The notes: generated by a model not told the origin, from the letters alone. A DNA stretch of 64,000 nucleotides from Acidimicrobiia bacterium (GCA_046759765.1 JBHICV010000001.1:125-64124); one strand, 5' to 3'; numbered from the stretch's first letter, positions 170 through 56,229 are shown. A program made the numbers and translations.

Positions 170-706
170 TCATCGGGTGTCTTTCTGATAGCGAAACAGT
201 TCGTCGTCCCCATACCGGCGACGTGAGACTAGATGTAGGCCTGAAGGCGGCTTGGGAGGGTCTTCGCCCACCCTCCGACGTACAACCACGGTAGCTCCCG
301 GCGCCAGCCGCGGCTCCAGTTCCGACATGACCTCTATTACGGAAGCTAGCGACTCCGCATATGGGGGGTCAACGAAGGCGAGATCGAATGTCTGCGACGA
401 GCGACGCAGGAAAGCTCCTACGGACGAAGCGAGGACGGTTCCCCCGAGACTGAGCTCCCGCACATTCGTTTCAAGGGCATCGACTGCGTCGGGCGATCGA
501 TCGACAAACGTCGCCGATCGAGCCCCACGACTGAGCGCCTCCAGCCCAAGGGATCCGGAGCCTGCGTACAGGTCGAGCACTCGGGCACCCTCGATCGGCC
601 CGAGGCTCGAGAAGAGCCCCTCTCGAGCCCGGGCGGTCATGGGCCGCGTGTCCTGAGAGGGAACCCGAAGAGACCTTCTCTTCGCCTTGCCCGCGATGAT
701 CCTCAT
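170..706 (-). CDS. rsmD: 16S rRNA (guanine966-N2)-methyltransferase RsmD
   Basis: 178-aa ORF with SAM-methyltransferase motifs [16 protein letters not shown] and DPPY typical of RsmD. Lies just downstream of recG on the same strand, the conserved recG-rsmD arrangement. Confidence 0.8.
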
Positions 707-6343: not shown

Positions 6344-6353
6344 GGGAAAGCTC

Positions 6354-14230: not shown

Positions 14231-14367
14231 GGAGAGAACATAAGGCGTCACCGCAGGCCCGTCAAACCAGAAACCAGGAAAGTTTTCGCGGGCAAATAGC
14301 GGTCAGCTGACACCTGAAAGCTCTTTTAAATTGCATCCATGTCATTCGCATCCCGTATGCTCTTGGT

Positions 14368-15162
14368 ATGACGTTGGAGAACCTCTCACCGTCCCGGGCC
14401 GCGGACTTCAAATCATGTCCACAGCTGTTCAGGTTCCGCGCCATCGATCGTCTGCCGGAGCCCCCGACCTCCCATCAAGCGCGGGGAACGACCGCTCACT
14501 TGGCCCTGCAAGAGCTATTTGATCTACCGGCCACAGAGCGGACCCCCCACCGCTTGCACGAGCTTTTTCGCGAGGCCTGGGCCTCTTTGCGCCTCTCAGA
14601 AGAGTTCGCCGGCCTGTTTGATGACGTAGAAGCCGAGCGCGAGTGGGGTCTGGAGAGCCTGGCGCTCCTTTCTAACTACTTCTCGGTGGAAGACCCGGCG
14701 CAAGTCGAGCCCCGAAGCCGTGAGTACGACATGACCGAGGATCTGGATGGCATTGTTATCCGCGGCATTCTCGACCGAATCGACGAGCTGCCGGACGGCA
14801 ACCTCATCATCACCGACTACAAGACGGGCAAGCCGCCCCCGGAGCGCTACGCGTTGTCCTCGTTCTTCGCCTTGAAGATCTACGCCTTGCTCATCCGCAA
14901 GCAGACGGGACGCACCCCCATTGAGCTGCGGCTCCTGTATTTGAACGGTCCGGCCCTTTATCGACTGTCAATCTCCGACGCCCAGCTCGACGGGATGGAG
15001 CGCCAGCTCCGGGCACTATGGCAAGCCATCAACCGGGCGATCGAACGCGATTTCTTCCCCCCGCGGGCGGGGCCTCTGTGCAACTGGTGCTCCTTCCAGG
15101 AGATCTGTCCGGCTTGGACGGAGTTGCCCGTGCCCGCACTCGCCGGTGCTGCTAGCTCCTGA
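14368..15162 (+). CDS. PD-(D/E)XK nuclease family protein (RecB-like/Cas4-like with C-terminal Cys cluster)
   Basis: 264 aa with the ITDYKTGK nuclease motif and C-terminal CNWCSFQEIC cysteines typical of Cas4/AddB-type Fe-S nuclease domains. Confidence 0.7.
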   Translation: MTLENLSPSRAADFKSCPQLFRFRAIDRLPEPPTSHQARGTTAHLALQELFDLPATERTPHRLHELFREAWASLRLSEEFAGLFDDVEAEREWGLESLALLSNYFSVEDPAQVEPRSREYDMTEDLDGIVIRGILDRIDELPDGNLIITDYKTGKPPPERYALSSFFALKIYALLIRKQTGRTPIELRLLYLNGPALYRLSISDAQLDGMERQLRALWQAINRAIERDFFPPRAGPLCNWCSFQEICPAWTELPVPALAGAASS

Positions 15163-16954: not shown

Positions 16955-17106
16955 GAGTTCTTGTCACAGTCGGGGGGTACGGTGACAACATGAAGCTCGA
17001 AGAAGCTCTCCGTAGGGCCGGGGTGTCGTTCATCGTTGTGTTCGACGGCCCCCCCGAAGACTGTCCACTGGCCGAAGCAGAGCAAACTGATCGGGCCGCC
17101 TGAGAG

Positions 17107-20082
17107 GTGTCGGACAACGCGATCGGGCCGATGGACTGGACTCGGGCCGTTGCCGACACCGACGGTCAGCAGCTAGTTCTGGCCGGGCCGGGAGCAGGCA
17201 AAACCGAGTTCCTCGTCCGCCGCGTCGCCTTTTTGATCGAGGCCGACCTGGCCGAGCCAAGCGAGGTTCTCGTGCTGGCTTTTTCACGCCGGGCAGCCGC
17301 CGAATTGCGATCCCGGGTAGAGGACAAGCTCGGTCGGTCGACGCTCCAGATTCCGGCTTCGACTTTTCATTCGTTCGCCTATCGGCTGCTGGAGTTCGTC
17401 GGACCCCACAAGGTTGGTTGGTCGCGCCTGCCCAACATCCTCACCGGCCCGGAGCAGATCACGTTCGTCGGCTCATTGCTCGAGGGCGAGAGTCCCGAGG
17501 AATGGCCTCCGGCCTACCGCGGCCTGCTCGGCACCCGGACGCTGGCCGAGGAGGTCACCGAGTTCATCCTCCGGGCCAACGAGAGCCTCATCGACGAGTC
17601 ATCCTTACGGGAGCTCGCGGCCAACCGAGCCGACTGGAGGGTGCTTCCGGAGTTCTCGGTCCGCTACAGCAGGGCGTTGGAAGAGGAGCATCGAATTGAC
17701 TACGGAACGCTCCAGACGACCGCCGCTCGGCTGCTAGAGCAGCGCGACATACGGCGGGGCATCGCCGATGACTACCGCTATGTCCTCGTCGACGAGTACC
17801 AGGACACGACCCGGGCCCAGGCGCGCCTCCTTGAACTGGTCAGCACCGAGGGAAATCTCACTGTGGCCGCCGATCCCAACCAGTCGATCTATGGCTTCCG
17901 GGGGTCCCATCCGGAAAACGTCGACCGGTTCGCCGAGAAATACCCGGACACCAAGCGAATCTTCCTCGAACAATCGTTCCGAGTTCCCGAAACTATCCTC
18001 GCCGCCGCCGACAGGATCAGGTCGGCCTCGCCCGCGTTGGCAACGAACCTCGAAGTCCGGGCCGCTGCGCACTCGGGATCCGTGGAGGTTCGTGTCTTCG
18101 ATCAACACTCTCACGAAGCCGAATGGATCGCGTCCGAGGTGCACCGACTGCATCTTTTCGAGGAAATCCCGTTCAGCCGCATCGCGGTCCTCGTGCGCAC
18201 CAAACGCCGATTGCTCACCGAGCTGTCGAGAGCCTTGGCCCGCAGGGAAGTCCCCCATGACGAGCCGCAGTCGCGCCTTGCCGATACCGCCGCCGTCCGG
18301 GCCCTTCTGGATTGTTTGGAAGTATGCGACCTCGAAGCCAAGGCTGATCGTGCCTCCCACCCAGAGGCAGCGATTCTTCGCCAGTCGGCCGACGCGGCCA
18401 TGGCTCGCATCTTGCTCGGCCCGCTCTTCGAGACGCCGTTGGGGCTTCACCGGGATCTACTTCGGCAGCGGAGGAGTACCGGCGCCTCTTGGGCGGACGT
18501 TGTGGGGAAGTTGCTCCCCGATGGGCAGGGGCTCTCTGATCTTCTGTCCGACGACCGCTGGATAACTGCACCAGCGACCGAAGGCTTCTGGACTTGGTGG
18601 ACGAGGCTTCCGCAACTCGTCCCATTCGTCGAACGTGGCGACACCGCTGAGGATCGCGCGGCGTGGAGCTCACTGGCACAGGTTCTCGACCGCATCACGG
18701 AGCGCCAACCGGCGACCACGCTCCTCGACTATGCCCGGCTCGTCTCGGAGGAGGACTTCGAGGCAACACCGTTGCTCAGCTACCGAAAGGTCGACGAGGA
18801 CCGCGTCACTTTGGCCACGCTCCATCAGGCCAAGGGACTGCAGTTCGACGTCGTCTTTGTCGCCGACGCTGTCGAAGGCGTGTTCCCGGACCTACGTCGG
18901 GAGCGCTCGATACTGCAGTCTCACCTGCTGACAGAACAGACGCATACGGGAACCGAAGCGACGAAGGCGCGGCTGGCCGAGGAAATGCGGTTGGCCTATG
19001 TAGGCATGACGCGGGCCAGAAGAAGGGTGATCTGGACCGCGACAATGGCCGGCATCGAGGAGGGTTCGGCAAGACCCAGCCGATTCCTGCCGCTGGTGGC
19101 CGGGGTGGAAACCATTGCCGAGCTGTCCGGTCCTCAGTCCGCCGAGATCCCCCCCGTTACTCCCCGCGCGGCCGAAGCCGCCATGCGGCGCGCTCTGCGC
19201 GACCCTGCTGAGCCTTCTGCTAAGCGGCTCGCCGCGACTGCCGTCCTGGCCTCGTCGGTGGGGCTGCGCCCGCCGTTGGAGTTCGCGGGCGTCAGGCCTC
19301 CTGGACCCGACCGGGGTCTCACCGACGTCGATGTTCGCTTGTCACCGAGCCAGGCTGATCTGTACGAGCGATGCCCGCGCCGTTACGCGCTCTCCCGGCG
19401 GCTTCGCGTGGGTGAGGAGGAGAATGTATACGCTCGTTTCGGGTCTCTGATTCACGAGGTACTCGAGGCCGTCGAGCGGACCGCCATGGCACGCGGCGAC
19501 CAGCACGGATCGCTGGAGGAGGCGGTGGCCGAGCTGGATCGGAGGCTGCCCGACTACGAGTTCGGCTCGCCGGGTCCGACCCGAGCATGGCGCCGTCGAG
19601 GCATCGATTGTCTCGAGAGTCTGTACACGCAATGGCCCGACGGGCGCGCGAGGCCGATCTCCCTCGAACGGGAGCTCCGGCTCGAGCTGGAAGGTACCCG
19701 CTGGCTGGGCTTCGCCGACCGCATCGAGGAGCTCGAAGGCGGCGCCCGCCGGGTGGTTGACTACAAGACCAGCAAGCGCGTTCCGCCGGTCTCAGAGCTC
19801 GCACTCCAGCTCGGCTTCTACCTCCTTGCTTCGGCAGCTGATCAGGACCTCGGTCCCGACGTCACCGAAGCCCAGGCGTGGTACCCGCTCGGCGGCAAGA
19901 AAGTGACGGTGCGAGAGCTCCCGACCTCGGAGCTACCGGACATTCGAGCGAGGCTTGTTGCTATTGCCGACGGTATTAGGAGGGAGAACTGGCAGCCCCG
20001 TCCGCACGAGGGCTGCGAGCGCTGCCCAGTTCGGATCCTCTGCCCGGAGTGGCCTGAAGGACAGGAGGCATTCGTCAGATGA
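17107..20082 (+). CDS. UvrD-type helicase with C-terminal RecB-like nuclease (AdnA-like subunit)
   Basis: 991 aa with N-terminal Walker A AGPGAGKTEFLV, UvrD motifs (DEYQDT, TLHQAKGLQFDVVFV), the C-terminal PD-(D/E)XK motif VVDYKTSK and the Cys cluster CERCPVRILC. Stop overlaps the next start (ATGA). Confidence 0.7.
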   Translation: MSDNAIGPMDWTRAVADTDGQQLVLAGPGAGKTEFLVRRVAFLIEADLAEPSEVLVLAFSRRAAAELRSRVEDKLGRSTLQIPASTFHSFAYRLLEFVGPHKVGWSRLPNILTGPEQITFVGSLLEGESPEEWPPAYRGLLGTRTLAEEVTEFILRANESLIDESSLRELAANRADWRVLPEFSVRYSRALEEEHRIDYGTLQTTAARLLEQRDIRRGIADDYRYVLVDEYQDTTRAQARLLELVSTEGNLTVAADPNQSIYGFRGSHPENVDRFAEKYPDTKRIFLEQSFRVPETILAAADRIRSASPALATNLEVRAAAHSGSVEVRVFDQHSHEAEWIASEVHRLHLFEEIPFSRIAVLVRTKRRLLTELSRALARREVPHDEPQSRLADTAAVRALLDCLEVCDLEAKADRASHPEAAILRQSADAAMARILLGPLFETPLGLHRDLLRQRRSTGASWADVVGKLLPDGQGLSDLLSDDRWITAPATEGFWTWWTRLPQLVPFVERGDTAEDRAAWSSLAQVLDRITERQPATTLLDYARLVSEEDFEATPLLSYRKVDEDRVTLATLHQAKGLQFDVVFVADAVEGVFPDLRRERSILQSHLLTEQTHTGTEATKARLAEEMRLAYVGMTRARRRVIWTATMAGIEEGSARPSRFLPLVAGVETIAELSGPQSAEIPPVTPRAAEAAMRRALRDPAEPSAKRLAATAVLASSVGLRPPLEFAGVRPPGPDRGLTDVDVRLSPSQADLYERCPRRYALSRRLRVGEEENVYARFGSLIHEVLEAVERTAMARGDQHGSLEEAVAELDRRLPDYEFGSPGPTRAWRRRGIDCLESLYTQWPDGRARPISLERELRLELEGTRWLGFADRIEELEGGARRVVDYKTSKRVPPVSELALQLGFYLLASAADQDLGPDVTEAQAWYPLGGKKVTVRELPTSELPDIRARLVAIADGIRRENWQPRPHEGCERCPVRILCPEWPEGQEAFVR

Positions 20083-23000
20083 GGCCGACTGTGGAGCAGC
20101 AGGCGATTACGAGCTATCCCCTGGGGCCTCTTCGTGTGGAGGCCGGGGCGGGGACCGGCAAGACGACCACACTGGCTTGGCGAGTCGCAGATCTGGTCAA
20201 GCTGCACAACATTCCGCCCCAAGCAATCCTCGGTATCACGTTCACGAACAAGGCCGCCGAGGAGCTCGCCGACCGGATCCACTCGGAGCTCGGGTTGCAG
20301 CTGAGCCAAGAGGTCGAGGTGCATACCTATCACGGCTTCGCCAATCAGCTAGTACAGGAATTCGGTCCGCTACTAGGTATCGAGCGCAGCTTTTCCGTTA
20401 TCACCCCCACCTTCGCCCGTCAGCTATTGCTGGATCAGGTGGCGGTGGGTTCATTCGACGAGCTGGATCTCACCTTTCCGCGCGGGATCGTGGCCCGTCT
20501 CATCAAGCTCTCCTCGGAACTGAGTGATCACCTCCGGACCGCGGATGACCTGCTTTCGGCCTCAGCCCTCCGCTCGGAGATCCCCTGGCCCGCTCGGGCC
20601 GAGCTCGCGACCCTTCTCAAGAGGTACGAAGCCAGCAAACGCCGACTGGACCTCCTCGATTACGGCGATCTGATAAGAGTCGCCCACCACTTGGTTGCCG
20701 ACCATCCGGAAGTCGCTGATCGGGTGCGCAGCCGGTATCAAGCGGTGTTGTGTGACGAGTACCAGGACACGAATCCCGCCCAGCGCGAACTCTTGCGAGC
20801 ACTATTCGGAGCGGGGTTTCCTCTGACTGTGGTTGGCGATCCCAACCAAACGATCTACGAGTGGCGAGGAGCGACACAAGAGAACTTCGCGGCTTTCCCC
20901 GTGCACTTCCCGAGCGCCGACGGCACACCCAGTGACACCAAACCGCTGTCACTCAACCGCCGATCAGACAGGCGGATCATCAAGGTTGCCAACGCGGTCG
21001 CCGGGAAAATCGGCTCCACCTCCCGGCTACGCCCTCGTCCCGGCGCGGGGCCCGGCCACGTCGAGGCTCGTTGGTACTCGACCGCACTAGACGAGGCGCA
21101 CGGCATCGCGGAGGAGATCGGGCGGCTCCACTCCGAAGCGGCGACCCAATGGCGGGACGTGGCCGTTCTGTTTCGGAAGAACAAAGACATATCACTCGTG
21201 AGGGATGCGCTCTCGGACCATGACATTCCGGTCGAGGTTGCCAACCTCGGCGGATTGCTGGGCATCCCTGAGGTGGTCGAGCTTCACGCCTGGCTTCGAG
21301 TGATCCGAGATCCCCGCGATGGAGTGGCGTTGACTCGGATCCTCACGGGTACCCGCTTTCGGCTGGGCCTTGGCGACCTGCGACCACTGGCCTTCTGGGC
21401 GCGCCGCCGCGACGGCCGAGGTGATGAGCCTGAGCTCGATGCTCCCACCCACAGCCTGATAGAGGCGATCGAGAATGTGTCTGAGCTGGACATCAGAGAC
21501 GAAGCGAGAGCCCCGCTGGAGGACTTCCTTCGCATCTACCGGGGCCTTCTGGCTGATGCGCAGGCGGTCAGCCTGGTCGAGCTTTGTAGGAGGATCCTCG
21601 ACGCCATCTCAGCCTGGGACGAGATAGAAGCGATGCCGGACGCCGGGCGTCTGTCCGCCCGACTCAACCTCTATCGTTTTCTCGACCTGGCCGAGGACTG
21701 GAGCCCGCTCGAGGGACGGCCGAGCCTTTCGGCCTTCCTCGACCATCTGTAGCTGATGCAGGAGGAAGAGGCCGAGGATCTAGACGCGGCTCGCCTGTCG
21801 AATGAAGACGCGGTGGCTTTGCTGACTGTTCACCGAGCCAAGGGACTCGAATGGGACGTGGTCTTCGTACCGGCCCTGTATCGAGGCAACTTCCCTTCCT
21901 ACGCGCGCCTCCACGAGGACCCGTTCAGGTTCCCGCAGATCCTCCCGTACGAGCTGCGGCTCGACCGCGACAGCTTGCCGCCAATCACGGACACCATGTC
22001 CGAGCAGATGCGAAAGGAGGTTCTGGGAAAGGGCCAAACCACGCAGGAGTGGCGAACGGCATATGTGGCCGTCACGAGGGCCCGTTCCCGGCTATACGCC
22101 TCCGGTGCTTGGTGGGTCGGATCGCCCGCCCCACAAAAGAATCCGAGCCGCCAGAGCGATCTCTTCGAGCTCATCGCAGGCCACGCCGACAAGGTCGTTG
22201 TTGCCGAGAAGCCGGGCCCCAGGCCGAAGCGAATTCGGCGCGAGTCAAACGGCGGTGCCCCCGACCCGGTCTTCCCGGACGGCTGGCAGAGCGGCTTGCG
22301 AGCCACCCTTGCCGATCCGTCATGGCCGGCCGATAGGGCCGCGAAGCTGGGCGTAAGCGACCTCTTCGAGCAAGAGCGCCAGCAGCTGCTCGACGTGGTG
22401 GCTCAAGCTACCCAACCCGCAGAGGCTTCTCCGACCTCGGAGAAAGTTGAGACCTCGGCAACCGGACTGGTCACATACGCCACGTGCCCTCGTCGCTTCT
22501 ACTGGTCGGAGATCGACCGGCTCCCCCGCCGGTCAACCAAGGCGGCGAGACGAGGAACGCTGATCCACCGCCGCATCGAGCTCCACAACAGCGGGATGGT
22601 GCCCTTCGAGGAGTTGGAAGCCGACCTTTACGACCGCACCACAGACGAAGGGGTGAGTGGAGGCCGAGGTGATCCGTTCGAAGCCTTCATGGGGTCACGC
22701 TTTGCGGAAGTGCTACCCCGTTGGGTCGAGATACCGTTCGAGCTCCAGCTAGGACCCTCCACTCGGGTGCGGGGCCGGATCGACGCCATCTACACGAACG
22801 GAACCACCGAGGTTGTCGACTTCAAGACCGGCAAGGGACCGAGCAGCCGCGCGGCCCGAGTGCAGCTGGAGGCTTACGGGCTGGCTGTGGCCGAGACGGG
22901 CTTGGCCGAGCCGCCGTTCCAGTTGACGTTCGCCTTCCTCGGGCAGGGAGTCTCGGAGGAGTCCGAGCAAGCGGACACCGCGTGGCTCGGCAACGCCCGC

Positions 23001-23135
23001 AGTCATCTGACCAAGTTGACCGAGGCCATCCAAGCCCGCAACTACGACGCCACCCCCTCCTACAGCTGCCACTCCTGCGACTTCCTACGTTTTTGCGAGC
23101 CGGGCCGGGACTGGGTAGACCTGCACCCGAGCTGA
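20079..23135 (+). pseudogene. UvrD-type helicase-nuclease (AdnB-like subunit) interrupted by in-frame TAG at 21750-21752
   Basis: ORFs 20079..21752 and 21756..23135 are in the same frame. They carry GAGTGKTT Walker A, DEYQDTN, then after the TAG ...TVHRAKGLEWDVVFVP (motif V/VI), the C-terminal VVDFKTGK nuclease motif and CHSCDFLRFC cysteines. Together they would give about 1017 aa. Confidence 0.65.
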
Positions 23136-46309: not shown

Positions 46310-47308
46310 ATGAGGATCGCGGTTATAGGCGCCGGGTCTTGGGGAACAACCATCGCTTCGGTGACGTCCGGCCGGACGAAGACGACGCTATGGTCGCGGC
46401 GGCCCGAAATCGCGGAGTCAATTCGGACCAATAGGCGCAACCCCGCTTATCTCAGCTCCTACTCACTTCCCGATGAGCTGGAGGCAACCTCCGATCTCGC
46501 GGAAGCCATTTCCGGTGTCGACCTGATCGTCATGGCCGTGCCGTCCCATGGCTACCGCGACACCATCAGCAAGGCGTCGGGGCTCATCGAAGGAGAGGTA
46601 GCGATCCTCAGCCTGACCAAGGGCATCGAGCAGCACACACTGCTGCGGATGACGCAGGTCACCGCCGAAGCCGTCCCCTCCCATCCTTCTTCGCTGATCG
46701 GAGTCCTGACCGGACCAAACCTCGCTCCGGAGGTGATGGCCGGACAGCCCACGGCCAGCGTCGTGGCGTTCGAGGAGGTCGAGGTCGCTCGCCGGTGCCA
46801 GGACGTCTTGATGTCCAGCTCCTTCCGTATCTACACGAATACGGACGTGGTGGGCTGCGAGACCGCGGGGGCAGTCAAAAACGTCTTGGCGATCGCGGCG
46901 GGAATGGCAAAGGGCCTCGGCTTCGGAGACAACACACTCGCGGCTCTCGTCACCAGAGCACTCGCCGAGCTCACGCGACTGGGCGTCGCGCTGGGAGGCG
47001 AGCCGGTGACATTCGCCGGGCTGGCTGGCATGGGCGATCTCATTGCCACATGCATGAGCCCAACGAGCCGCAATTACCGCGTCGGATATGGCCTTGGCCA
47101 GGGCCGAACCTTGCAGGAGGTAACCGACGAGATGCAAATGGTGGCCGAAGGGATCAAGACGACGAGAGCCGTGCTAGATCTCGCCGCTCGGGCCGGCGTG
47201 GAGGTTCCCATCTCAGAACAGGTTGGGCGAGTTCTCTACGAGGAAGCTGCACCCTCGGAGGCAGTTCTGGCGCTGATGAGCCGAGCTCCGAAGGACGAGC
47301 GGGACTGA
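46310..47308 (+). CDS. gpsA: NAD(P)H-dependent glycerol-3-phosphate dehydrogenase
   Basis: MRIAVIGAGSWGTT Rossmann N-terminus after a ggagga RBS; GpsA motifs (KGIE, NVLAIAAG). Confidence 0.85.
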   Translation: MRIAVIGAGSWGTTIASVTSGRTKTTLWSRRPEIAESIRTNRRNPAYLSSYSLPDELEATSDLAEAISGVDLIVMAVPSHGYRDTISKASGLIEGEVAILSLTKGIEQHTLLRMTQVTAEAVPSHPSSLIGVLTGPNLAPEVMAGQPTASVVAFEEVEVARRCQDVLMSSSFRIYTNTDVVGCETAGAVKNVLAIAAGMAKGLGFGDNTLAALVTRALAELTRLGVALGGEPVTFAGLAGMGDLIATCMSPTSRNYRVGYGLGQGRTLQEVTDEMQMVAEGIKTTRAVLDLAARAGVEVPISEQVGRVLYEEAAPSEAVLALMSRAPKDERD

Positions 47309-47325
47309 AAGCGTCAGGCTTCGGC

Positions 47326-48234
47326 TCAGGCGGCCTCCCAGGCCGCCCGACGAAGTGCTCGGTAGAGGAGGTCGCGGTCACCAAGCCGACGCCGCAGATG
47401 GCGTTCCAATCCACCGACCGGATAAAGGTTCTGCGGGGCCCGCGGTTCCTTGTGACGGCCGGACGCGAACCGTGGGAGCGTCGCCGACACGAGGTCGGCT
47501 GTCGCGGTTGCTTCAGATGGCTCGAGCTCTGCGGGCGCTTCGCATCGAACGATTCCCGACATCGGGCTGGCATCCGATCCCGGGAGGCGCAGGTACCACG
47601 AGTATCGACTCCATGATGTGGTTGTCAGAAACACTGGCGTCCGCTGACCAGGAAGCAGATTCCCCAGGACCGGCTGAAGCGCAGGAGGTAGATAGTTGAC
47701 ACGATGGGTCTTGATGTAGCCGACAGCTCCCCGCGGCCCGGCGCGGCCCCTCAAGGGGCCATCCACCACCACCAGTTGGCCCTCCGAGGCGGGCAGGTCG
47801 CGCTCCAGATCACCCATCCTCTGTTGAACTCCGAGCCACAGCTCTTCGGGGGTCGATCCGGCGGTGGCGTGTAACTCGTATGTGGCCCGTGACGTCACCA
47901 GCGCCCGAGCGTCTCCAGCCGGTGTGAACAGGCCCCTCCGTACCTCAGCTGCCACGATGTCGGCGGTGCCGTTGCACAAGACCGCGCCCGCTGCGTATGA
48001 GGCGCAGACACCCATCACCGCCGTTTCGCCCTCTGTGATCCAGAGGTTGGCGTCCACTCTTCGGACTCCGTCTATGAAGAGAACGTGCTCAGCAGGTTCC
48101 CCGGTTGGCGACTGCGGGGTCCATTTTTCTCCCGGTATCTCGATGTCGACATCGACAGGTCCGGAAGGCTCTTCGGACCACATGTCGGTCGGAGTCCCGT
48201 AGTCCGGATCCCACGGCTCAACAGAGAACCTCAT
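47326..48234 (-). CDS. Hypothetical protein, candidate NurA-like nuclease (last gene of the herA-sbcD-sbcC operon)
   Basis: 302 aa; ATGA overlap with the sbcC stop. Contains HVLFIDGVRRVD and LVVVDGPLRG, reminiscent of NurA motifs I and III (xIDGS, hhhDGsL), plus GYIKTH. Confidence 0.4.
   Translation of the reverse strand: MRFSVEPWDPDYGTPTDMWSEEPSGPVDVDIEIPGEKWTPQSPTGEPAEHVLFIDGVRRVDANLWITEGETAVMGVCASYAAGAVLCNGTADIVAAEVRRGLFTPAGDARALVTSRATYELHATAGSTPEELWLGVQQRMGDLERDLPASEGQLVVVDGPLRGRAGPRGAVGYIKTHRVNYLPPALQPVLGNLLPGQRTPVFLTTTSWSRYSWYLRLPGSDASPMSGIVRCEAPAELEPSEATATADLVSATLPRFASGRHKEPRAPQNLYPVGGLERHLRRRLGDRDLLYRALRRAAWEAA
47329..47347. terminator. GC hairpin GGCGGCCT-ccc-AGGCCGCC between convergent gpsA and the NurA-like gene
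   Basis: 8-bp perfect stem immediately after both convergent stops; there is no U-tract, so intrinsic termination is uncertain. Confidence 0.3.
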
Positions 48235-50615
48235 GAGTCGATTCGCCGCACCGTTGCGGTCTTGGCACCTTTGGTGACCTCGAACCTGACCGGTACCTGC
48301 TCGGCGAGCTCGGTTACGTGGGTGACAATTCCGACCGTTCGGCCCCGGGCTCCGAGCTCGTGAATGACACCTCCAACCGTGTCTAGGCTCTCGCGATCGA
48401 GTGTCCCGAAACCCTCATCGAGAAAGATCGTCTCCATGGGCGAGCCTCCTCTGGTTGACAAACGGCTCAGCTGCTCGGAGAGAGAGAGCGCCAGCGACAG
48501 GGACACCAGAAATGTCTCACCTCCTGAGAGGGTACGAACCGAGCGCCTCTCATCGGCGTTGCGATGATCGACGACCTCGAAGCCTCTCCCGGCGAGCCAG
48601 AGCGAGTACGACCCCTGCGAGAGTTCCGTCAAGAGCTCGTTGGCACCGGCAACCAAAGCCCTCAGGGCCTCGTCCAAGAGCCAAGCTTCGAAACGATCGG
48701 CCCGCAGATGGAGAGCCAGCATCTCCGAGGTGGCCCTACGGCGGGTGCTCTTCTCGATCCCGATGCGGATCTTCTCCAACTCAGAGGCCGCTTCGGAGAT
48801 CCGATCGAGCTGATGTCTCGCCTCGGCTAACTCGGCGAACGAAGCCTTCTCCCGGCTGAGGACATCTGTGGGTTCCAGTCCGTGCTCTCGCATAAACTCG
48901 TCGAGCTTGTCGGCCAGCTCGACGGCCTCGACCTCGTATCTGGCTGCCGCCTCCTCCGCTTCGGTAGCTTCGGCCGTCAGCTCGTCGCCGCGGGCTCGGG
49001 CCCACTCGGCGAGTTGTTGCCAGTCATGAAACGGATCGTCTCGCGCCGGTCGCGGCGGATCGAGTTTCGCAACCCGGTCTCTCGCCTGCTCGAAGTCCTT
49101 GCGAAGTCGATCGATATTGCCTTCCAACTGCTCCTGCTTTGTTCGGTGCTTGGCGAAGGCCTCGCGGGCTTCGATCTCGCTTTTGCGTGAGTCTGACAGC
49201 TCGGCATCTGCTTTCTCGGCCGCCTCGACCTGTGCCGCAAGCTCGTCACGTGGCGGCACCCCCGCAAGCCGGCGCTCGAGCTCATCGATTCGCTCCTGCA
49301 GGTCGTGGGCTCTCCCCTCGAGCCGAGCTCTCTTCTCCTCCGCCGCGCTCTTCCTCGCTTCGCTACTGTCGTGGGCATCCTCCACTAGCCGCAGGCCCTT
49401 CTGAGCGGCCGTCAGTGAGGCTGCCCGCACCTCCGTCGGGATCGCAGTCACCACCTGTCTGCAGACCGGACAACGGTCACCCATACGAAGATCGGCCGCG
49501 AGACCGTGGGCGGCATGAGCCGACTTGGCCTCCTCGAGCGCTTCTCGTGCTGCGAGCAGCTTGCTGTTCGACTCGGCGGCGTCGGCTCGCACGGAAATGA
49601 GCTCGGAGGAAGCGATTTCCAAGCTGGCGGATACCTCCGAATGCGCCTTTCGGATTTGAGTCAGCTCCTCCATCCCCCTCCAAAGATCCTTCAGCTCCGC
49701 GCGGTCGCCGAGACTGTCTCGGCGACTCTCGGCCGCCGTCAGACGCTCGGTTGCTTTCTTGGCGTCTGCCTGGGATATCACCAGCTGGTGGTTGGCGGTA
49801 TCGCTCTGATTTCTCAGTGTCTGGGCCTCATCCGGGACTTCGAGACCCTCGAGCTTGCTTGCCTGTTCCGCCGCGGTCCGAGCTGCCTTCCGCGTGGCTT
49901 CGGCGTCGGCGATCTTTCTCTCGAGCTCTGGTTCGGATTCAGCCAGGCGCTCGTGCAGCCGCTCCAGGGCGGCGACACGCTTCTCCGCGTCAGCCCTCGC
50001 TTGCGAAGTCGCGAAGTCGAGATCCGCTGCACGTGCCTCGAGCCCGCGCACCCGCTCGGAAAGCGCCGCGGCCTCGTGTGCCGCTAGCTCCCGGATCTCG
50101 GAGAAGATTCCAAGGTCGAGAAGGCTGCGCAGGAGAGCCTGGCGTTGAGCCGGCCGATCATGGAGAAATCGGGCGAACTCGCCCTGCGGTAGGACGACTG
50201 ACTTGATGAAGTGATCGAACCCGAGCCCCAGCAAGGCTTCGACGGCGTTGGTGACTTCATCGGCCGTGCCGGCTACGACCTCGTCTCCGTGCTCGAGCCG
50301 TGCCTCTTCGGTGCTGGCTCCCCCGTCTTTTCTTCGGCGGACCACTCGGACTGCGGTCCACTCATCGGGCCCCACGTTGAAGTCGAATCGGACCCGGGCT
50401 TCGAGCTTCCCGACTGAGATCAGGGGGGCGACGGCCCGCTTGTCGCCGTACCTCGGGACCGACCCATAGAGCGCGAACACGATCGCGTCGATCAGGCTGG
50501 ATTTTCCGGCTCCGGTGGCGCCAGTCAATGCGAAGAGATCGGCGTCTGAGAAATCGACAACTACCGGTTCGCGAAAGGCTATGAAGCCTGAAACCTCGAG
50601 TTGCTTAGGGCGCAC
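48231..50615 (-). CDS. sbcC: SbcC/Rad50-family ATPase with zinc hook
   Basis: Walker A LTGATGAGKSSLIDAI, coiled-coil middle with the CPVC hook (DRCPVCRQ), C-terminal signature LSGGETFLVSLSLALSL and Walker B IFLDEGFGTLD. 794 aa. Confidence 0.8.
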   Translation of the reverse strand: MRPKQLEVSGFIAFREPVVVDFSDADLFALTGATGAGKSSLIDAIVFALYGSVPRYGDKRAVAPLISVGKLEARVRFDFNVGPDEWTAVRVVRRRKDGGASTEEARLEHGDEVVAGTADEVTNAVEALLGLGFDHFIKSVVLPQGEFARFLHDRPAQRQALLRSLLDLGIFSEIRELAAHEAAALSERVRGLEARAADLDFATSQARADAEKRVAALERLHERLAESEPELERKIADAEATRKAARTAAEQASKLEGLEVPDEAQTLRNQSDTANHQLVISQADAKKATERLTAAESRRDSLGDRAELKDLWRGMEELTQIRKAHSEVSASLEIASSELISVRADAAESNSKLLAAREALEEAKSAHAAHGLAADLRMGDRCPVCRQVVTAIPTEVRAASLTAAQKGLRLVEDAHDSSEARKSAAEEKRARLEGRAHDLQERIDELERRLAGVPPRDELAAQVEAAEKADAELSDSRKSEIEAREAFAKHRTKQEQLEGNIDRLRKDFEQARDRVAKLDPPRPARDDPFHDWQQLAEWARARGDELTAEATEAEEAAARYEVEAVELADKLDEFMREHGLEPTDVLSREKASFAELAEARHQLDRISEAASELEKIRIGIEKSTRRRATSEMLALHLRADRFEAWLLDEALRALVAGANELLTELSQGSYSLWLAGRGFEVVDHRNADERRSVRTLSGGETFLVSLSLALSLSEQLSRLSTRGGSPMETIFLDEGFGTLDRESLDTVGGVIHELGARGRTVGIVTHVTELAEQVPVRFEVTKGAKTATVRRIDS

Positions 50616-51747
50616 CCGCCGTCTCCATTAGCTCCCGAAACAGGGCGACAACCTTGTCGTCCTCTACGCCCTCGCTCGTCAAGTACTCCGCCACGAGCTC
50701 ATGGGGAGGGCGCCCCAGACGCGGCGGGCGCTCCACATCGTCAAGTTTCTCGGGACTGACGAGTACTACGTCGATGGCCTCGGGAATCATCTCGCGGATC
50801 TGATCGGCCAGGCCTGCTCGAGCCGGCTCGTGGAGCTCAACGCGGACATATGCGTCCTCGGTGCTCGGGGCGGCAGCCTCGATTTCAGCCAGAGTCCCGG
50901 CGATCTTGAAGAGGCGTCGCCCGCTCGTGATCGGTATCTGGGTGACGTGAGCGGGCAGGCCGGGTTCCGCTTCTACGAGCAAGACGCCTTTGGGATCTTC
51001 CGTTTCGCCGAAGTCGAGCTGCAGCGGCGAGCCGGAATACCAGGTCGGACATGGGGCGGGGACACGCTGAGCCCGGTGCAGGTGTCCCAGCGCCGCATAG
51101 GTCAACGCACCGGGAAACGCCTGGGCAGGGACGACATAATCAAACACCGTGTGAGCCTGTCGCTCGCCACCGCCCAGTTCGCCCCCGGCCACCATCACAT
51201 GACCGACAACGATGTTGACCTCATTCGTCGACAGGTCCTGCGTGAGGTGCACGATGATCTCTCGGACCCGTTCGGCGTACTTGCCGCCGTGAGCCGATCT
51301 CCCCAGGCCCATCAGATCATCTGCTCGAACGACGTAGCGCTGGGAGATGAACGGCAGCAAGGCGAGCCGCGCCGACTCGCCGCTCGCGGCCTTCATTCGT
51401 ATAACTCCGCCTTCCGCCGCGGGGCGGGGATGGGATGCGACCGTTACCCGACCAAGCTCCAGTAGAGGGGCCACGGCCTCGAGCCGGCGGGGATGGTCGT
51501 GATTGCCGGCCACGATGACAACGGGCGCGATTTCGGCCAGGCCGAGCAGCGTCTGGTAGACGATCTGTTCGGACTGCGGAGATGGGGCAGCCAGGTCGAA
51601 CAGATCCCCGCCCACGAGAACCAGGTCGACTTCCTGTGCCTCCGCCACACCAGTGACTTCCAACAGCACAGCTTCATGCTCGGCGGCACGGCTCTTTCCA
51701 CGCATCGTCCTTCCCACGTGCCAGTCCGAGGTGTGGAGGATTCTCAC
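50605..51747 (-). CDS. sbcD: SbcD/Mre11-family nuclease
   Basis: Calcineurin-like phosphoesterase motifs VRILHTSDWHVGR, GDLFD, VAGNHDHP and GHVM (as VGHVMVAG). GTG start overlaps the HerA-like stop (GTGA). Confidence 0.8.
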   Translation of the reverse strand: MRILHTSDWHVGRTMRGKSRAAEHEAVLLEVTGVAEAQEVDLVLVGGDLFDLAAPSPQSEQIVYQTLLGLAEIAPVVIVAGNHDHPRRLEAVAPLLELGRVTVASHPRPAAEGGVIRMKAASGESARLALLPFISQRYVVRADDLMGLGRSAHGGKYAERVREIIVHLTQDLSTNEVNIVVGHVMVAGGELGGGERQAHTVFDYVVPAQAFPGALTYAALGHLHRAQRVPAPCPTWYSGSPLQLDFGETEDPKGVLLVEAEPGLPAHVTQIPITSGRRLFKIAGTLAEIEAAAPSTEDAYVRVELHEPARAGLADQIREMIPEAIDVVLVSPEKLDDVERPPRLGRPPHELVAEYLTSEGVEDDKVVALFRELMETAGAP

Positions 51748-53414
51748 GCCGGGAGTCCGGCGAATGGGTCCTGCTGTGAGGCCGGTCCGGCCTCTGAAGC
51801 TCGTGTTGCCCACGCGGGGAACGGAAACTCGACGACCAGCGGAATTGGTAGCTCGGGCTGGGAGACGAGCATCGTTCCCGGCTTCATGATGGTCGCCCGC
51901 TGGCGATGTGCGGCCGGAAGGAACCCGTACTCCTCGCGGGCTGCTTCGGCCGAGTCCAATCGTCCGACGACTCTGATCGAAGAGTTGGCGATTATCCGGC
52001 GCTCTACTTCGCTGGCAGTTTGTTGCGCTCCGATCAGAACAACTCCCAGCGAGCGGCCGCGCTCCGCCACATCCAGGAGAACCTCCTTGATGGGCGAGAA
52101 GCCCTCACGAGGGGCATATTTGTTCAGCTCGTCGAGGACCAAGACCAGCAACTCGCGGGTGCCGCCCTGACGCTCTTTCTCCTCGAAGGCCCGACGGACC
52201 GTCGCTCCTACCACGAACCTCTTCGCTCTGTCGTTGAGCGTGTGAAGGTCTACGACGGTCACCTGATCGTCCAGGCGGACTCGATGTTGGCCGGGATCGG
52301 GGACGTCAGCGCGCACAAGACGCTCTACGTGCCGTACCGCTCCCTGCAAACGGCGCACGAAGGCATTGATCGTGCCCATGCCCATAGCCGGACCGGCCCA
52401 CAGGTGCCGGTCGGAGTCGTCCTGCACGCGGGCGGTGATCAGATCGGCCAGCTCGCGGAAAGTCCTGAGCTCAACACCGTCGAGCTTCACGCCACCGTCG
52501 TCGGTCGTCACCGCGTTACGCAGCTGAGCCATCACGTTGTATATGACCATCGTGTACTGGGCTCGGTCGTCTTCGGCATCGGCAAAGAGGAAAGGCAGCA
52601 GGTCGTCCTGACAGAAATCGGCCAGAGTCCAAAAGAAGGACGTGACGCCTTCACTGCGTCCCGCTACGCCGGCAGCCGCGCTCGGCGCGCCTGCCCTAGG
52701 CGGCGCGAAGATCGCCAAGCTGCGGAAAGGTTCACCGGCCAAGCCGAGGGCCTGGTAAAGACGCCGGTCCTCCGCGCTCATGGCCAAGTTTCCTCGGTCG
52801 AGGTAGAGAAGGTCCTCTCCCTTCACATTGAAGATCAGCGCCTTTGTGTTGACGGCTCGGTCGCCTAGGACTCCGGAGCTGAACAGGCTGTGAAGCAAGA
52901 ACGTGGCGTAGCTCGTCTTGGTCGCCACCCCGGAGACGCCGCTGATGTTGGCGTGTGCTCCGCGGGTGCCGTCGAGAAACTCCAAGTTGGCGAACAGAGG
53001 CTCACCGGACCGGGACAACCCGATCGGCAGCCGCTCGCTCATCCGGTCGAAGAAAAGCGCCTCCTCCCGCTCTTCGGCATGAGCAAGGCGAACACCCAAG
53101 CCCGGCTGAGGTGGGACGAAGATCTCGGGCTCGAAGCGAGTCGCCGTTACCTGCGCCGCCTCCATCACTTCCGCCGGCAGCACTCCTTCGGAGATGAGAA
53201 AGACGTCGGAGTCGAAGCGTGCGCCCTCATGGCGCGCGCGTACCTGGGAGACGACGCCGTAAATCCTTACCTGCTCGCCACCCGGGAGCTTGCGTTCGAG
53301 AGCGACGACATCGTCGAGCTGCAAATAGCGATCGCCCGCCACCCCGACCCAGAACTCCAGAGGCGTGGCGTCCTCTGTGCCGATTACCCGGCCGACAAGC
53401 TCGTTCGACTCCAC
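51744..53414 (-). CDS. HerA-like (FtsK/HerA superfamily) ATPase
   Basis: 556 aa with an N-terminal barrel-like region, a deviant Walker A GVSGVATKTS and a HerA-type Walker B LVLVLDELNKYAP (compare hhhhDEAHxxxP). Confidence 0.6.
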   Translation of the reverse strand: MESNELVGRVIGTEDATPLEFWVGVAGDRYLQLDDVVALERKLPGGEQVRIYGVVSQVRARHEGARFDSDVFLISEGVLPAEVMEAAQVTATRFEPEIFVPPQPGLGVRLAHAEEREEALFFDRMSERLPIGLSRSGEPLFANLEFLDGTRGAHANISGVSGVATKTSYATFLLHSLFSSGVLGDRAVNTKALIFNVKGEDLLYLDRGNLAMSAEDRRLYQALGLAGEPFRSLAIFAPPRAGAPSAAAGVAGRSEGVTSFFWTLADFCQDDLLPFLFADAEDDRAQYTMVIYNVMAQLRNAVTTDDGGVKLDGVELRTFRELADLITARVQDDSDRHLWAGPAMGMGTINAFVRRLQGAVRHVERLVRADVPDPGQHRVRLDDQVTVVDLHTLNDRAKRFVVGATVRRAFEEKERQGGTRELLVLVLDELNKYAPREGFSPIKEVLLDVAERGRSLGVVLIGAQQTASEVERRIIANSSIRVVGRLDSAEAAREEYGFLPAAHRQRATIMKPGTMLVSQPELPIPLVVEFPFPAWATRASEAGPASQQDPFAGLPA

Positions 53415-53462
53415 AATCCGGCCCTGCGGCCGAGGGTAGCAACAGGGTGCGACACTGCCGTG

Positions 53463-54704
53463 TCATGCTTCGGGAGCGATTCGAAGCACCCTGCCGTCGC
53501 GAACGGCGACGTAAATCTCGCCCGTGGAATCGACCCCGAATGACGAGAGTCCTTCGAGTCGACCGACCTGGTCGGTCCAGTCGGTTTGATCGACGGCCTC
53601 GCCGCCTTGATAGCGAAAGCTCCGCAGGTAGCCCGCGCAGTAGTCCGAGTACAGATAGTGGCCGCCGAGGCTCGGGATTGCGCTGCCTCGGTAAACCACG
53701 CCGCCGGTTACGGAGCAGCTGCCCGAATCGCGGTGCGCGATCTCCAACACCGGCAGGGTGAGCCCGGCCACATCGCACCCGCTCACGGGTCGGAAGCAGT
53801 GGAGCCCTTCGGTAATCGGCCACCCGTAGTTGAGACCCCCGACGTCGCCCGGGGCAACATCGATCTCCTCGAAGGCGTTCTGGCCGACGTCACCGATATA
53901 GAGAAGTCCCCTGTCAAAGGAGAACCGCCAAGGGTTCCTGAGGCCATACGCCCACACCTGGGGCGCGCCACCGCCGTCCACGTACGGGTTGTCGGGGGGT
54001 ATCTCGTAGGGGACTCCCGAGTCGACATCGAGCCGAAGGATCGTGCCGAGAAGGGTGTCCGGACGCTGGCCCTGGCCGAACTGGTCGTTGGCGCCCCCGC
54101 CGTCACCGAGACCGAGGTACAGGTATCCATCAGGCCCGAAGGACAGTTGTCCGCCGTTGTGGTTGCCGGCGGGCTGATCAGCCGTAAGGATCACTCGGAC
54201 CGGATCGGGGTCGGCCAGGTCGGAGCCCGCAGAACGTCGGTACTCGACGACCCGGGTATCGCCACTTCCATCCGAATAATGCACGAAGAACCGGCCGCTC
54301 TGGGCGTAGTCGGGATGAAAGGCCAGCCCGAGCAGCCCTTGTTCGCCTCGGTCCCTGACGAGGTCTCGGATATCAAGGAAAACGCGGAGGTCGCTCGATG
54401 GGTCAGTCACGAATATCCGACCTTCCTTGGCGACGACGAAAAGACGCGGGTCCCCGGCAAGCGACTCGATTCCGACCGGGAACGGCAGGCCGGTCACGGT
54501 CGTCTCGTAGAAGAGCGAGCTCGGCTCAGGAACCGTCGTGGTCGTTGTCGGGCCCGTGATCTCAGGGGGGGCCGTGGTCGTCGTCGAAATTGTGGCTGGC
54601 GGCTCCGCCGCCGGCACCGACGTGGCTGGCACCGGATCCCCTGGGCTGTCGACCAGCGCCGTACAGGCCGAGAGGAGCACGGCGAGAATTAGGGGTCGCC
54701 GCAT
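53463..54704 (-). CDS. PQQ-dependent sugar dehydrogenase (SGDH-type beta-propeller) lipoprotein
   Basis: Signal/lipobox LLSACTAL; GLLGLAFHPDY and HNGGQL motifs of soluble aldose sugar dehydrogenases. Confidence 0.7.
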   Translation of the reverse strand: MRRPLILAVLLSACTALVDSPGDPVPATSVPAAEPPATISTTTTAPPEITGPTTTTTVPEPSSLFYETTVTGLPFPVGIESLAGDPRLFVVAKEGRIFVTDPSSDLRVFLDIRDLVRDRGEQGLLGLAFHPDYAQSGRFFVHYSDGSGDTRVVEYRRSAGSDLADPDPVRVILTADQPAGNHNGGQLSFGPDGYLYLGLGDGGGANDQFGQGQRPDTLLGTILRLDVDSGVPYEIPPDNPYVDGGGAPQVWAYGLRNPWRFSFDRGLLYIGDVGQNAFEEIDVAPGDVGGLNYGWPITEGLHCFRPVSGCDVAGLTLPVLEIAHRDSGSCSVTGGVVYRGSAIPSLGGHYLYSDYCAGYLRSFRYQGGEAVDQTDWTDQVGRLEGLSSFGVDSTGEIYVAVRDGRVLRIAPEA

Positions 54705-54921
54705 TGCGTCAGGCTAGGAGCGACTTGTCCTTAATTCGCGGCCTTCGACGACCGCTATGGGGCATTGTCGTCAGCTGCTAGTAACGTCTGCCTCGCAGAG
54801 TGCCTGCTTCAACGTTCCGCCCTCCCTTGCTCCTTGTATCAAGACCGGGCGAATGGAGACCGGCTTGCACGATCTGATTCCATAGGGCACGACCTGGCCT
54901 TGCATGAAAAGGAGCAAATAG

Positions 54922-55406: not shown

Positions 55407-55443
55407 CAAAGCCTGTCACACCTCGCCCGTAGGTTGAACGGGC

Positions 55444-56229
55444 ATGAAAAGGCTAGGTCTGGCAATCGTCCTCGCGGTCAGCGCATGCACTGCGGCGCCC
55501 GAAGGCGTAACCGTCACGGTCCTCGACGTGATCGACGGGGACACCATCCGCGTTCTTTCGAACGGGAGCCTCGAGGATGTGCGGCTGGTTGGGATCAACA
55601 GCCCTGAGTGGGTTGAGTGCCAGGGTCCGGAGGCAGCGGCAGCTCTCGAGGAAATGCTCGAACGGGATAGGGCGCGTCTGGTGGTGGACACCTCAGACCG
55701 CGACCAATACGGAAGGCTGCTTCGGCTGGTCTTCTCGGAAGGGGATTTCGTCAACGAGTCATTGGTGCGCGCGGGCCTGGCTATCGCCTTCTCGGTTCCG
55801 CCCGACGTCTCGGCCGCCAACCTCCTATCGCGAGCTGAGGAGTCGGCGGAGCGAAGCTGGGCCGGGATCTGGGACCCAAGTGCCTGCGGTCCTCCTCCCC
55901 CGCCGGGCATCACGATCGAAGGGATACACAGTGGAGCAGGTTGGACAGGCGAGCCCATCGATGGGGAATCGGCGGTCATCCGCAACATTGGTGCCTCGGC
56001 GATTGAACTCACGGACTGGACGCTGCGTGACGCCTCGTCTCACCACCGCTACCGATTCCCCGCCTTGGTAGTAGAGGGTGGAGGCCGAGTGGTGATCGAG
56101 ACGGCCTGCGGATCCGATCGGCCGGACCGCCTGCACTGGTGCTCGGATAGCCCGGTGTGGAACGACGCTCGGGACCACGCCTTTCTTCTGGACATCCACG
56201 GCAACATCGCCAGCCATCTGCGTTATTGA
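55444..56229 (+). CDS. Secreted thermonuclease (SNase-like) lipoprotein with C-terminal lamin-tail-like domain
   Basis: Lipobox LAVSACTA; SNase motifs DGDTIRV...VRLVGINSPE...YGRLL; C-terminal ...NIGASAIELTDWTLRD... resembles an LTD. Confidence 0.6.
   Translation: MKRLGLAIVLAVSACTAAPEGVTVTVLDVIDGDTIRVLSNGSLEDVRLVGINSPEWVECQGPEAAAALEEMLERDRARLVVDTSDRDQYGRLLRLVFSEGDFVNESLVRAGLAIAFSVPPDVSAANLLSRAEESAERSWAGIWDPSACGPPPPPGITIEGIHSGAGWTGEPIDGESAVIRNIGASAIELTDWTLRDASSHHRYRFPALVVEGGGRVVIETACGSDRPDRLHWCSDSPVWNDARDHAFLLDIHGNIASHLRY

Follow-up and report, generated by a model that had tools for sequence, protein, structure and literature searches.

A bacterial-type herA-sbcD-sbcC-nurA operon with a candidate DNA-damage promoter in an Acidimicrobiia genome

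The DNA analyzed here (hereafter the window) comprises 64,000 nucleotides (nt) of an Acidimicrobiia bacterium (GCA_046759765.1 JBHICV010000001.1:125-64124). Positions 47326–53414 on its minus strand carry 4 genes, herA, sbcD, sbcC, and nurA, which form a real four-gene operon for the processing of broken DNA ends (Table 1). The 4 genes are tightly coupled: (i) the 3′ end of herA reads ...CCGGCGTGA, and the herA TGA stop codon (51746–51744) is shared with a GTG at 51747–51745, giving GTGA; (ii) the GTG of sbcC (50615) lies 11 nt ahead of the TAA end of sbcD (50605), that is to say, the 2 genes overlap by 11 nt; and (iii) the TGA of sbcC and the ATG of nurA overlap as ATGA (48234–48231). The longest open reading frame (ORF) of sbcD in the ORF listing (50605..51813) encodes 402 amino acids (aa). 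Because SbcD profile alignments begin at residue 23–24 of this ORF, the sbcD start is probably the GTG at 51747. A first-pass annotation, made from the sequence alone, had described these 4 coupled minus-strand genes with their GTGA, 11-nt, and ATGA overlaps, and the ORF list and the reading of the junctions agree with it; the motifs that it quoted (LVLDELNKYAP, CPVC, and DGx) were all located in the translations. The gene order is, as it also stated, that of the archaeal herA-mre11-rad50-nurA operon, for which the source cited is reportedly Constantinesco 2004.

The window HerA is, judging from its homologs, a bacterial, Deinococcus-type member of the FtsK-HerA superfamily. A phmmer search of the PDB aligned it with Deinococcus radiodurans HerA (7f6d_B) at an expect value (E) of 1.7e-145 over residues 3–542 in 2 segments, with ~52% identity in the alignment. 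We take the D. radiodurans HerA and NurA to be DR_0837 and DR_0836, respectively. The window HerA has a Walker-A-like motif, GVSGVATKTS, at residue 159 and a Walker B motif, LVLDELNKYAP, at residue 425, and residues K166, D428, and E429 are invariant in the alignment with the D. radiodurans protein. Its translocation function is carried over from this ortholog and is therefore best regarded as putative. The same search retrieved no archaeal HerA structures from the PDB at E<=1, and the defense-system HerA proteins in the PDB had E>=0.002 to the window protein. No Pfam family matched the window HerA at E<=0.1, and the NCBIfam matches were all sub-threshold (HerA_Thermprot, E 0.017, 13.5 bits versus a cut-off of 800). 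This HerA clade falls outside the curated profiles because the NCBIfam HerA models describe archaeal and defense-system HerA. In NCBI, an identical protein carries the name “ATP-binding protein [Acidimicrobiia bacterium]”. The family is compact, with 518 clusters (50% identity) at E<=1e-30, and the clade is unusually conserved, with 62–78% identity across phyla versus 35–43% for the adjoining SbcC.

The last gene of the operon encodes a bacterial-type NurA, as judged by sequence and predicted fold. In the phmmer search of the PDB, the 302-aa protein matched D. radiodurans NurA (7f6d_H) at E 9.4e-21 and the Thermotoga NurA-like protein TM1739 (1zup) at E 1e-4. The Pfam NurA family (PF09376) scored 20.1 bits against a gathering score of 21 (E 4.9e-4); several close homologs have a precomputed PF09376 match, and one of them is named “DNA double-strand break repair nuclease NurA”. 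AlphaFold2, given 44 homologs, yielded a model with a predicted local distance difference test (pLDDT) score of 85.8 and a predicted template modeling (pTM) score of 0.84. With this model, Foldseek retrieved 7f6d_G (E 2.2e-19, template modeling (TM) scores 0.72/0.66) and 1zup (E 2.3e-15). Archaeal NurA structures were not retrieved from the PDB by sequence at E<=1, and the archaeal NurA 3TAI gave a weak partial fold match to the model. The motifs DGV, DGP, and RAPQN are located at residues 55, 158, and 265, and both DG motifs line up with those of D. radiodurans NurA. D55 (FIDG), E130, E144, D158 (VDGP), H261, and RAPQN are invariant across the 44 homologs, and these residues would correspond to the archaeal catalytic D/E/D/H set. 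The identical NCBI protein, from an Acidimicrobiia metagenome-assembled genome (MAG), is named “hypothetical protein”.

The 2 central genes encode a bacterial SbcCD pair. SbcD scored 176.2 bits on TIGR00619 (cut-off 77.65), whereas the archaeal Mre11 models gave ~37–38 bits; it also matches Pfam Metallophos, its closest PDB entries are the Escherichia coli SbcD structures 4lty and 6s6v (E ~4e-28), and the phosphoesterase motifs DWH, GDLFD, GNHD, and GHLH are all present. SbcC matches Pfam AAA_23 and SbcC_Walker_B above cut-off, and its closest PDB entry is E. coli SbcC (6s6v_C, E 2e-35). Its Walker A motif (GATGAGKS), CPVC zinc hook, signature motif (SGGE), and Walker B motif (LDEGF) lie at residues 32, 382, 697, and 732, respectively. 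On TIGR00618 it scored 247.3 bits, under the cut-off of 478.5, and archaeal Rad50 models gave at most 97 bits; the shortfall on TIGR00618 is consistent with a shorter coiled coil in this protein of 794 aa.

The four product assignments of the first-pass annotation thus stand. HerA is supported by the match to its D. radiodurans counterpart, compared with which the matches to defense-system HerA are far weaker. NurA is supported by the D. radiodurans match and by the RNase-H-like fold (TM 0.72), SbcD by its above-cut-off TIGR00619 score and phosphoesterase motifs, and the short SbcC with a CPVC hook by its motifs, its Pfam matches, and E. coli SbcC. The epithet “archaeal-type” that it gave to the operon fits the gene order only, not the proteins. 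Bacterial models outscore archaeal Mre11 and Rad50 models 2.5- to 4.5-fold for SbcD and SbcC (176 versus 38 bits and 247 versus 97 bits, respectively), and archaeal HerA and NurA were not retrieved. All 4 proteins are therefore bacterial-type, because the bacterial SbcCD models outscore the archaeal ones and because HerA and NurA match Deinococcus proteins.

The arrangement recurs widely in bacteria. A pattern scan covering 185,579 species, each represented by one genome, gave at least 600 pattern matches and at least 564 confirmed HerA relatives, of which the best 80 (62–78% identity) were taken with their flanks as related loci. The sbcD, sbcC, and nurA genes were sought there by tblastn with the window proteins; a locus was evaluable if at least 5.5 kb was available downstream of herA, and phyla are those given by the sequence-record labels. 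Among these best 80 of at least 564 relatives, 54 of the 57 evaluable loci of other species had herA-sbcD-sbcC-nurA, all on one strand and in this order. The arrangement is therefore not due to chance. Most of the carriers are Acidimicrobiia; among the others are Nitriliruptoria, Acidobacteriota, Gammaproteobacteria (including a 5.85-Mb chromosome), Gemmatimonadota (a 3.3-Mb chromosome), Bacteroidota (Saprospiraceae and Cyclobacteriaceae), and a Dehalococcoidia (Chloroflexota) chromosome. The carriers thus belong to at least 6 phyla, and some of the loci lie on megabase-scale contigs or whole chromosomes. The first-pass annotation had presented the arrangement as unusual in bacteria; with 54 of 57 evaluable loci carrying the 4 genes in Actinomycetota and at least 5 other phyla, that view has to be given up. 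The arrangement is common in Actinobacteria; the RefSeq names given to the Streptomyces copy are generic.

A tblastn search of plasmid records added further copies. An 11.85-Mb replicon of Nonomuraea gerenzanensis has the same gene order as the window, and a 451-kb linear plasmid of Streptomyces sp. BB1-1-1 keeps it as well (locus L084, 1–5397); RefSeq names the 4 Streptomyces products ATP-binding protein, exonuclease SbcCD subunit D, SMC family ATPase, and hypothetical protein. In L085, on a cyanobacterial plasmid, the order is permuted to nurA-herA-sbcD-sbcC. The Streptomyces plasmid copy adjoins TIGR02680, TIGR02678, and DUF2397 genes and an opposite-strand ImmA/IrrE metallopeptidase gene; of all the contexts seen, this one alone is suggestive of a defense or stress island.

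The coupling of the genes was compared in the 55 fully resolved loci. The sbcD and sbcC genes overlap in 51 of them, and sbcC and nurA overlap in 37, by 4 nt in 32 of these; SbcC is 756–850 aa long in 51/55. At the herA-sbcD junction, the genes overlap in 12 loci, lie within 30 nt in 16, and are more than 150 nt apart in 12. Nine loci (L001, L004, L005, L016, L019, L035, L059, L078, and L080) have 1–4.4 kb of unrelated DNA between herA and sbcD, and the sbcD-sbcC-nurA triad is intact in the loci with such insertions. The insert of L001 (9778–11001) holds an opposite-strand gene resembling mannosyl-3-phosphoglycerate synthase. Two Actinomycetota loci, L011 (herA 6222–7886) and L076 (herA 6260–7909), lack sbcD, sbcC, and nurA both in the 10 kb downstream and in the 6 kb upstream; either their herA genes are solitary or the partner genes have moved elsewhere.

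In a neighbor-joining HerA tree, which has no support values, the sequences from outside the Actinomycetota fall by phylum into small groups that are nested among the Actinomycetota, and the Nonomuraea/Streptomyces, cyanobacterial, and Deinococcus proteins branch outside. This tree suggests that some transfer of the bacterial operon between phyla may have taken place. Recent acquisition by the window genome is a different matter. The G+C content is flat across the window (0.60–0.66), and the operon neighbors are housekeeping genes, encoding a glucose/sorbosone dehydrogenase, an RRM-domain protein, an SNase-family nuclease, an aminotransferase, GpsA (glycerol-3-phosphate dehydrogenase), a cytochrome c, and an acetyl-CoA-synthetase-like enzyme. 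No mobile-element or defense genes were seen among these neighbors, and there are no conjugation or division genes near the operon. Recent horizontal acquisition was rejected on the lack of a G+C deviation and of mobile genes nearby, and the earlier idea of a horizontally acquired module does not hold against the uniform G+C content and the housekeeping neighbors.

The region upstream of herA contains a candidate PafBC-type promoter, TGTCGCACCCTGTTGCTACCCT, which lies inside the 48-nt spacer before herA and ends 18 nt ahead of the herA GTG. PafBC activates the mycobacterial DNA-damage regulon through a −26 element combined with a canonical −10 element (PMC8635444, PMC6789036). The window sequence fits the mycobacterial 22-nt consensus tGTCgg(N10)tA(N3)T with the same geometry. 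The window has 5 matches to the strict motif TGTCR-N11-TANNNT, where 0.87 would be expected, and all 5 are intergenic and face the next gene (Table 1). Within 200 nt upstream of herA, this motif was found in 35 of 82 related loci, mostly ending 0–30 nt before the herA start codon, compared with 0.23 on average and at most 2 in shuffled sequences and 0 on the opposite strand. The relaxed motif GTC-N12-TANNNT was found in 50 of 68 loci from Actinomycetota or unassigned organisms versus 1 of 14 loci from other phyla. Of the 17 loci in which herA and sbcD lie apart, 5 have a separate motif for sbcD (L019, L035, and L080, and, with shorter gaps, L021 and L079), and the solitary-herA locus L011 retains the promoter motif. 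The operon is thus probably damage-inducible via PafBC in this genome and in most related Actinomycetota. A sigma-70 promoter scan of 47000–53800 gave 3 promoter-like sites, all of them intragenic and scarcely exceeding shuffles, and terminator-like sites in an intrinsic-terminator scan of the same region were at chance level. The pafBC genes were not among the scanned ORFs of the window.

Table 1. Positions of the operon genes, the candidate promoter, and related features in the window.
Feature	Position	Strand	Description
herA	51744..53414	-	Deinococcus-type HerA hexameric ATPase/translocase (putative function); 556 aa, GTG start
sbcD	50605..51747	-	Mre11-family phosphoesterase; 380 aa from GTG at 51747
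sbcC	48231..50615	-	Short Rad50/SbcC ABC-ATPase with coiled coil and zinc hook; 794 aa, GTG start
nurA	47326..48234	-	Bacterial-type NurA nuclease, RNase-H-like fold; 302 aa, ATG start
Candidate PafBC-type (RecA-NDp) promoter TGTCGCACCCTGTTGCTACCCT	53433..53454	-	-26 TGTCGC, -10 TACCCT
PafBC-type motif	14340-14361	+	Next gene PD-(D/E)XK nuclease, 14368..15162
PafBC-type motif	16962-16983	+	Next gene AdnAB-like helicase-nuclease, 17107..
PafBC-type motif	54766-54787	+	Next gene RRM-domain protein, 54922..
PafBC-type motif	55414-55435	+	Next gene SNase-LTD nuclease, 55444..; motif ends 8 nt before start
AdnAB-like first subunit	17107..20082	+	991 aa, UvrD helicase and PD-(D/E)XK domains
AdnAB-like second subunit, split	20079..21752 and 21756..23135	+	Helicase N-terminal part, then UvrD_C and PD-(D/E)XK part; same frame

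Taken together, the 5 motifs look like a small DNA-damage regulon in one window. One of the genes behind such a motif, 2 genes upstream of the operon, encodes the SNase-LTD protein (55444–56229, plus strand), which combines staphylococcal-nuclease and lamin-tail domains with a signal-peptide-like hydrophobic N-terminus; it is odd for a nuclease that is apparently exported to have a damage-type promoter. Another motif precedes an AdnAB/AddAB-like dual helicase-nuclease locus (17107–23135, plus strand), ~25 kb from the operon. The second subunit encoded there is broken by a single in-frame TAG at 21750–21752, which may reflect a pseudogene, an error in the MAG sequence, or a subunit that is genuinely split. 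The window also encodes a RecG helicase (703–2850, minus strand) and is thus fairly rich in recombination and repair genes; the motif scan of the window found no PafBC-type motif upstream of recG.

The gene identities, the operon structure, its conservation across species, and the promoter motif with its own conservation are the observations from which we infer that SbcCD and HerA-NurA are coupled, physically or functionally, that they are induced by damage, and what they do in vivo. We consider it probable that the 4 genes are one chromosomal transcription unit encoding a two-stage machine for double-stranded DNA ends, which is induced by DNA damage and works alongside the AdnAB-like enzyme. 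In this proposed mechanism, the PafBC-type promoter would switch the operon on after DNA damage. An SbcD2-SbcC2 complex, the bacterial Mre11-Rad50, would recognize and open or clean ends, hairpins, and protein-blocked ends. A HerA hexamer seated on a NurA dimer would then, driven by ATP, feed the duplex to the active sites of NurA, where it would undergo long-range 5′-3′ digestion, and the resulting 3′ tail would be passed to RecA. With an AdnAB-like enzyme encoded in the same window, the operon would constitute a parallel resection route, acting alongside that helicase-nuclease and not in place of it. This situation resembles that of Thermus, which has 4 helicase-nuclease pairs (PMC13140390). 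End resection by D. radiodurans HerA-NurA was shown biochemically, and the complex was solved as 7F6D (PMC9960219).

Several points weigh against this two-stage repair reading: (i) herA is more loosely attached than the other genes, with unrelated genes sometimes intervening in the 12 of 55 loci where it lies more than 150 nt from sbcD; (ii) the genome already has an AdnAB-like resection enzyme, though one of its subunits carries the in-frame TAG; (iii) the promoter call relies on a motif defined in mycobacteria; (iv) D. radiodurans HerA and NurA add little to radiation resistance, and an interaction between bacterial SbcCD and HerA/NurA was named an open question (PMC4663267); (v) the D. radiodurans nurA-herA double knockout is ~10-fold more resistant to ultraviolet light (UV) and mitomycin C (PMC9960219); and (vi) the in vivo role of bacterial HerA-NurA is unsettled, with conflicting Thermus reports (PMC5448004, PMC13140390).

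Because this physiological role is unsettled, given the resistant knockouts and the conflicting Thermus reports, a degradative or recombination-restraining role is a serious rival. The module would then destroy DNA, degrading both strands of broken or surplus chromosomes or restraining recombination, and would not produce 3′ tails. The greater resistance of the D. radiodurans nurA-herA knockouts to UV and mitomycin C agrees with such a role (PMC9960219), as does a similar finding in T. thermophilus cited in PMC13140390. In vitro, D. radiodurans NurA-HerA cleaves not only the 5′ but also the 3′ strand (PMC9960219). Both strands can be digested by archaeal HerA-NurA as well, for which wholesale degradation has been put forward as one mode (PMC3326311). 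A damage-type promoter fits degradation equally well. On the other hand, the D. radiodurans mutants showed ~10-fold lower intermolecular recombination, as summarized in PMC5448004, and a Thermus hepA mutant was UV-sensitive (Blesa 2017, PMC5448004). Conservation beside sbcCD across phyla suits productive repair at least as well as degradation, and the sequence itself separates neither mode from the other. On balance, we regard the degradative role as unlikely, though one to be taken seriously.

The first-pass annotation had also raised the possibility of a defense or anti-plasmid system, in which SbcCD would act with a HerA-NurA effector against phages or plasmids. HerA-family ATPases and NurA-like nucleases do occur in defense systems, a role of HerA-NurA against foreign DNA has been speculated upon (PMC3326311), and the NurA-like subunit of TdpAB (8wfd_G) gives a weak fold match to the window NurA (E 1.6e-3). 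PADLOC returned partial matches of HerA to mad8 (E 4.7e-13 over residues 338–528) and to HerA PDLC01055 (E 8.6e-9), that is, in the range from 5e-13 to 9e-9, and a partial match of SbcC to LmuB/mad3. The Streptomyces linear-plasmid copy, moreover, adjoins TIGR02678, TIGR02680, and DUF2397 genes. However, the PADLOC matches cover no more than generic ATPase cores and fall far short of the match to D. radiodurans HerA; no effector partner of the SIR2 or DUF4297 type was found at the operon, and the neighbors are housekeeping genes without mobile genes, at uniform G+C content. No HerA relatives were found on 2.9 million viral contigs, phage records held only distant HerA proteins (25–27% identity), and, among 72,556 plasmid records, only 6 gave a match, one of these 6 being an 11.85-Mb chromosome labeled as a plasmid. 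In the HerA tree without support values, the HerA proteins of one phylum mostly cluster together, and the DNA-damage-type promoter is conserved in Actinomycetota. The defense reading is weak because relatives are scarce on viruses and plasmids and because the PADLOC matches are limited to generic ATPase cores without an effector. We therefore rejected this explanation, which we rate as very improbable.

Least probable, to the point of being a slim prospect, is that HerA is a DNA pump for segregation, transfer, or uptake (as in FtsK-like proteins or Thermus transjugation) and that its linkage to sbcCD is incidental: a T. thermophilus hepA mutant is defective in transjugation (PMC5448004) and herA is the most loosely attached of the 4 genes, but nurA is never missing, genes for conjugation or division are absent from the surroundings, the promoter motif is shared with nuclease and helicase genes, and the linkage to sbcCD is not incidental because the 4 genes stand together in 54/57 loci across phyla.

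The four-gene operon is thus ordinary for its lineage, neither a rare archaeal import nor a defense island. A bolder form of the two-stage repair reading is that the operon represents a widespread pathway of double-strand break resection, vertically maintained and occasionally transferred, in which HerA-NurA works physically with SbcCD and which, in Actinomycetota, belongs to the PafBC regulon and runs parallel to AdnAB. We put this forward tentatively, as a possibility somewhat short of even. If it is true, the “archaeal” HerA-NurA route would belong to the mainstream of bacterial pathways in several phyla that are dominant in the environment, and the question of whether bacterial HerA-NurA connects to SbcCD, left open in PMC4663267, would be answered. 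Studies of bacterial HerA-NurA have been confined to Deinococcus and Thermus, where it is unlinked to sbcCD and the knockout phenotypes are puzzling, even opposite; a four-gene operon conserved in many bacteria, and preceded in Actinomycetota by a DNA-damage-type promoter, is strong genomic-context evidence for functional coupling. The coupling is testable, since the operon is present in the cultured Nonomuraea gerenzanensis, in a Streptomyces strain (on a plasmid), and in MAGs assigned to Egicoccus and Rhabdothermincola. The operon also points to an annotation gap, in which a HerA clade without a Pfam or NCBIfam match above threshold is named “ATP-binding protein” and NurA “hypothetical protein”, and the PafBC regulon may reach gene families not reported in mycobacteria.

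In the literature searched, the only bacterial linkage of HerA/NurA with SbcCD that we found is that of Oceanithermus profundus (PMC5448004), where sbcD and sbcC downstream of herA were treated as a single-genus curiosity (Blesa et al. 2017, PMC5448004). Neither the breadth of the four-gene operon across phyla nor the archaeal-like nurA-last order in bacteria was found in that literature, from which 3 key older papers are excepted, and herA, nurA, or sbcCD were not found there as members of the PafBC regulon. The linkage of HerA/NurA and SbcCD is therefore already known, and the breadth across phyla, the nurA-last order, and the PafBC-type promoter appear unreported in the papers searched.

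Comparison of the window operon with known systems gave the following similarities and differences. The archaeal herA-mre11-rad50-nurA operon (Sulfolobus, Pyrococcus) has the same 4 functions, the same order, and the same tight coupling, as well as the same proposed division of labor, in which Mre11-Rad50 recognizes the end and HerA-NurA carries out long-range resection. By contrast, the window proteins are not specifically archaeal, with the archaeal equivalog models far under their cut-offs, and whereas the archaeal genes were reported to be UV-induced or essential, the regulation of the window operon appears to be actinobacterial (PafBC-type) instead.

The D. radiodurans HerA-NurA complex (7F6D, 7WRW/7WRX) has in common with the window HerA the Walker-A-like motif GxSGVATKTS, the Walker B motif VLDELNKYAPREG, and IGAQQTASEVERRI, and residues 1–295 of the window NurA align end to end with residues 21–359 of the D. 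radiodurans NurA, which is longer (369 aa versus 302 aa). In Deinococcus and Thermus, nurA-herA is a two-gene unit without a link to sbcCD (PMC5448004, PMC4663267), whereas in the window herA comes first and sbcD and sbcC stand between herA and nurA. The canonical sbcDC operon, as in E. coli SbcCD (6S6V), shares the sbcD-then-sbcC order, the gene overlap, the phosphoesterase and ABC-ATPase motifs, and the CxxC hook. It differs in that the window SbcC has 794 aa compared with 1048 aa in E. coli, with a shorter coiled coil, and in that the window pair is flanked by herA and nurA. The nurA-hepA(herA)-sbcD-sbcC cluster of Oceanithermus profundus has nurA ahead of herA, whereas nurA is last in the window and in 54 other loci; the cyanobacterial plasmid locus has the same order as the O. 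profundus cluster. Finally, in comparison with mycobacterial PafBC promoters, motif positions 6–11 are here C-rich (TGTCRCACCCC) rather than “gg”, and the likeness to the mycobacterial PafBC regulon extends to the same motif ahead of the AdnAB-like locus in the window.

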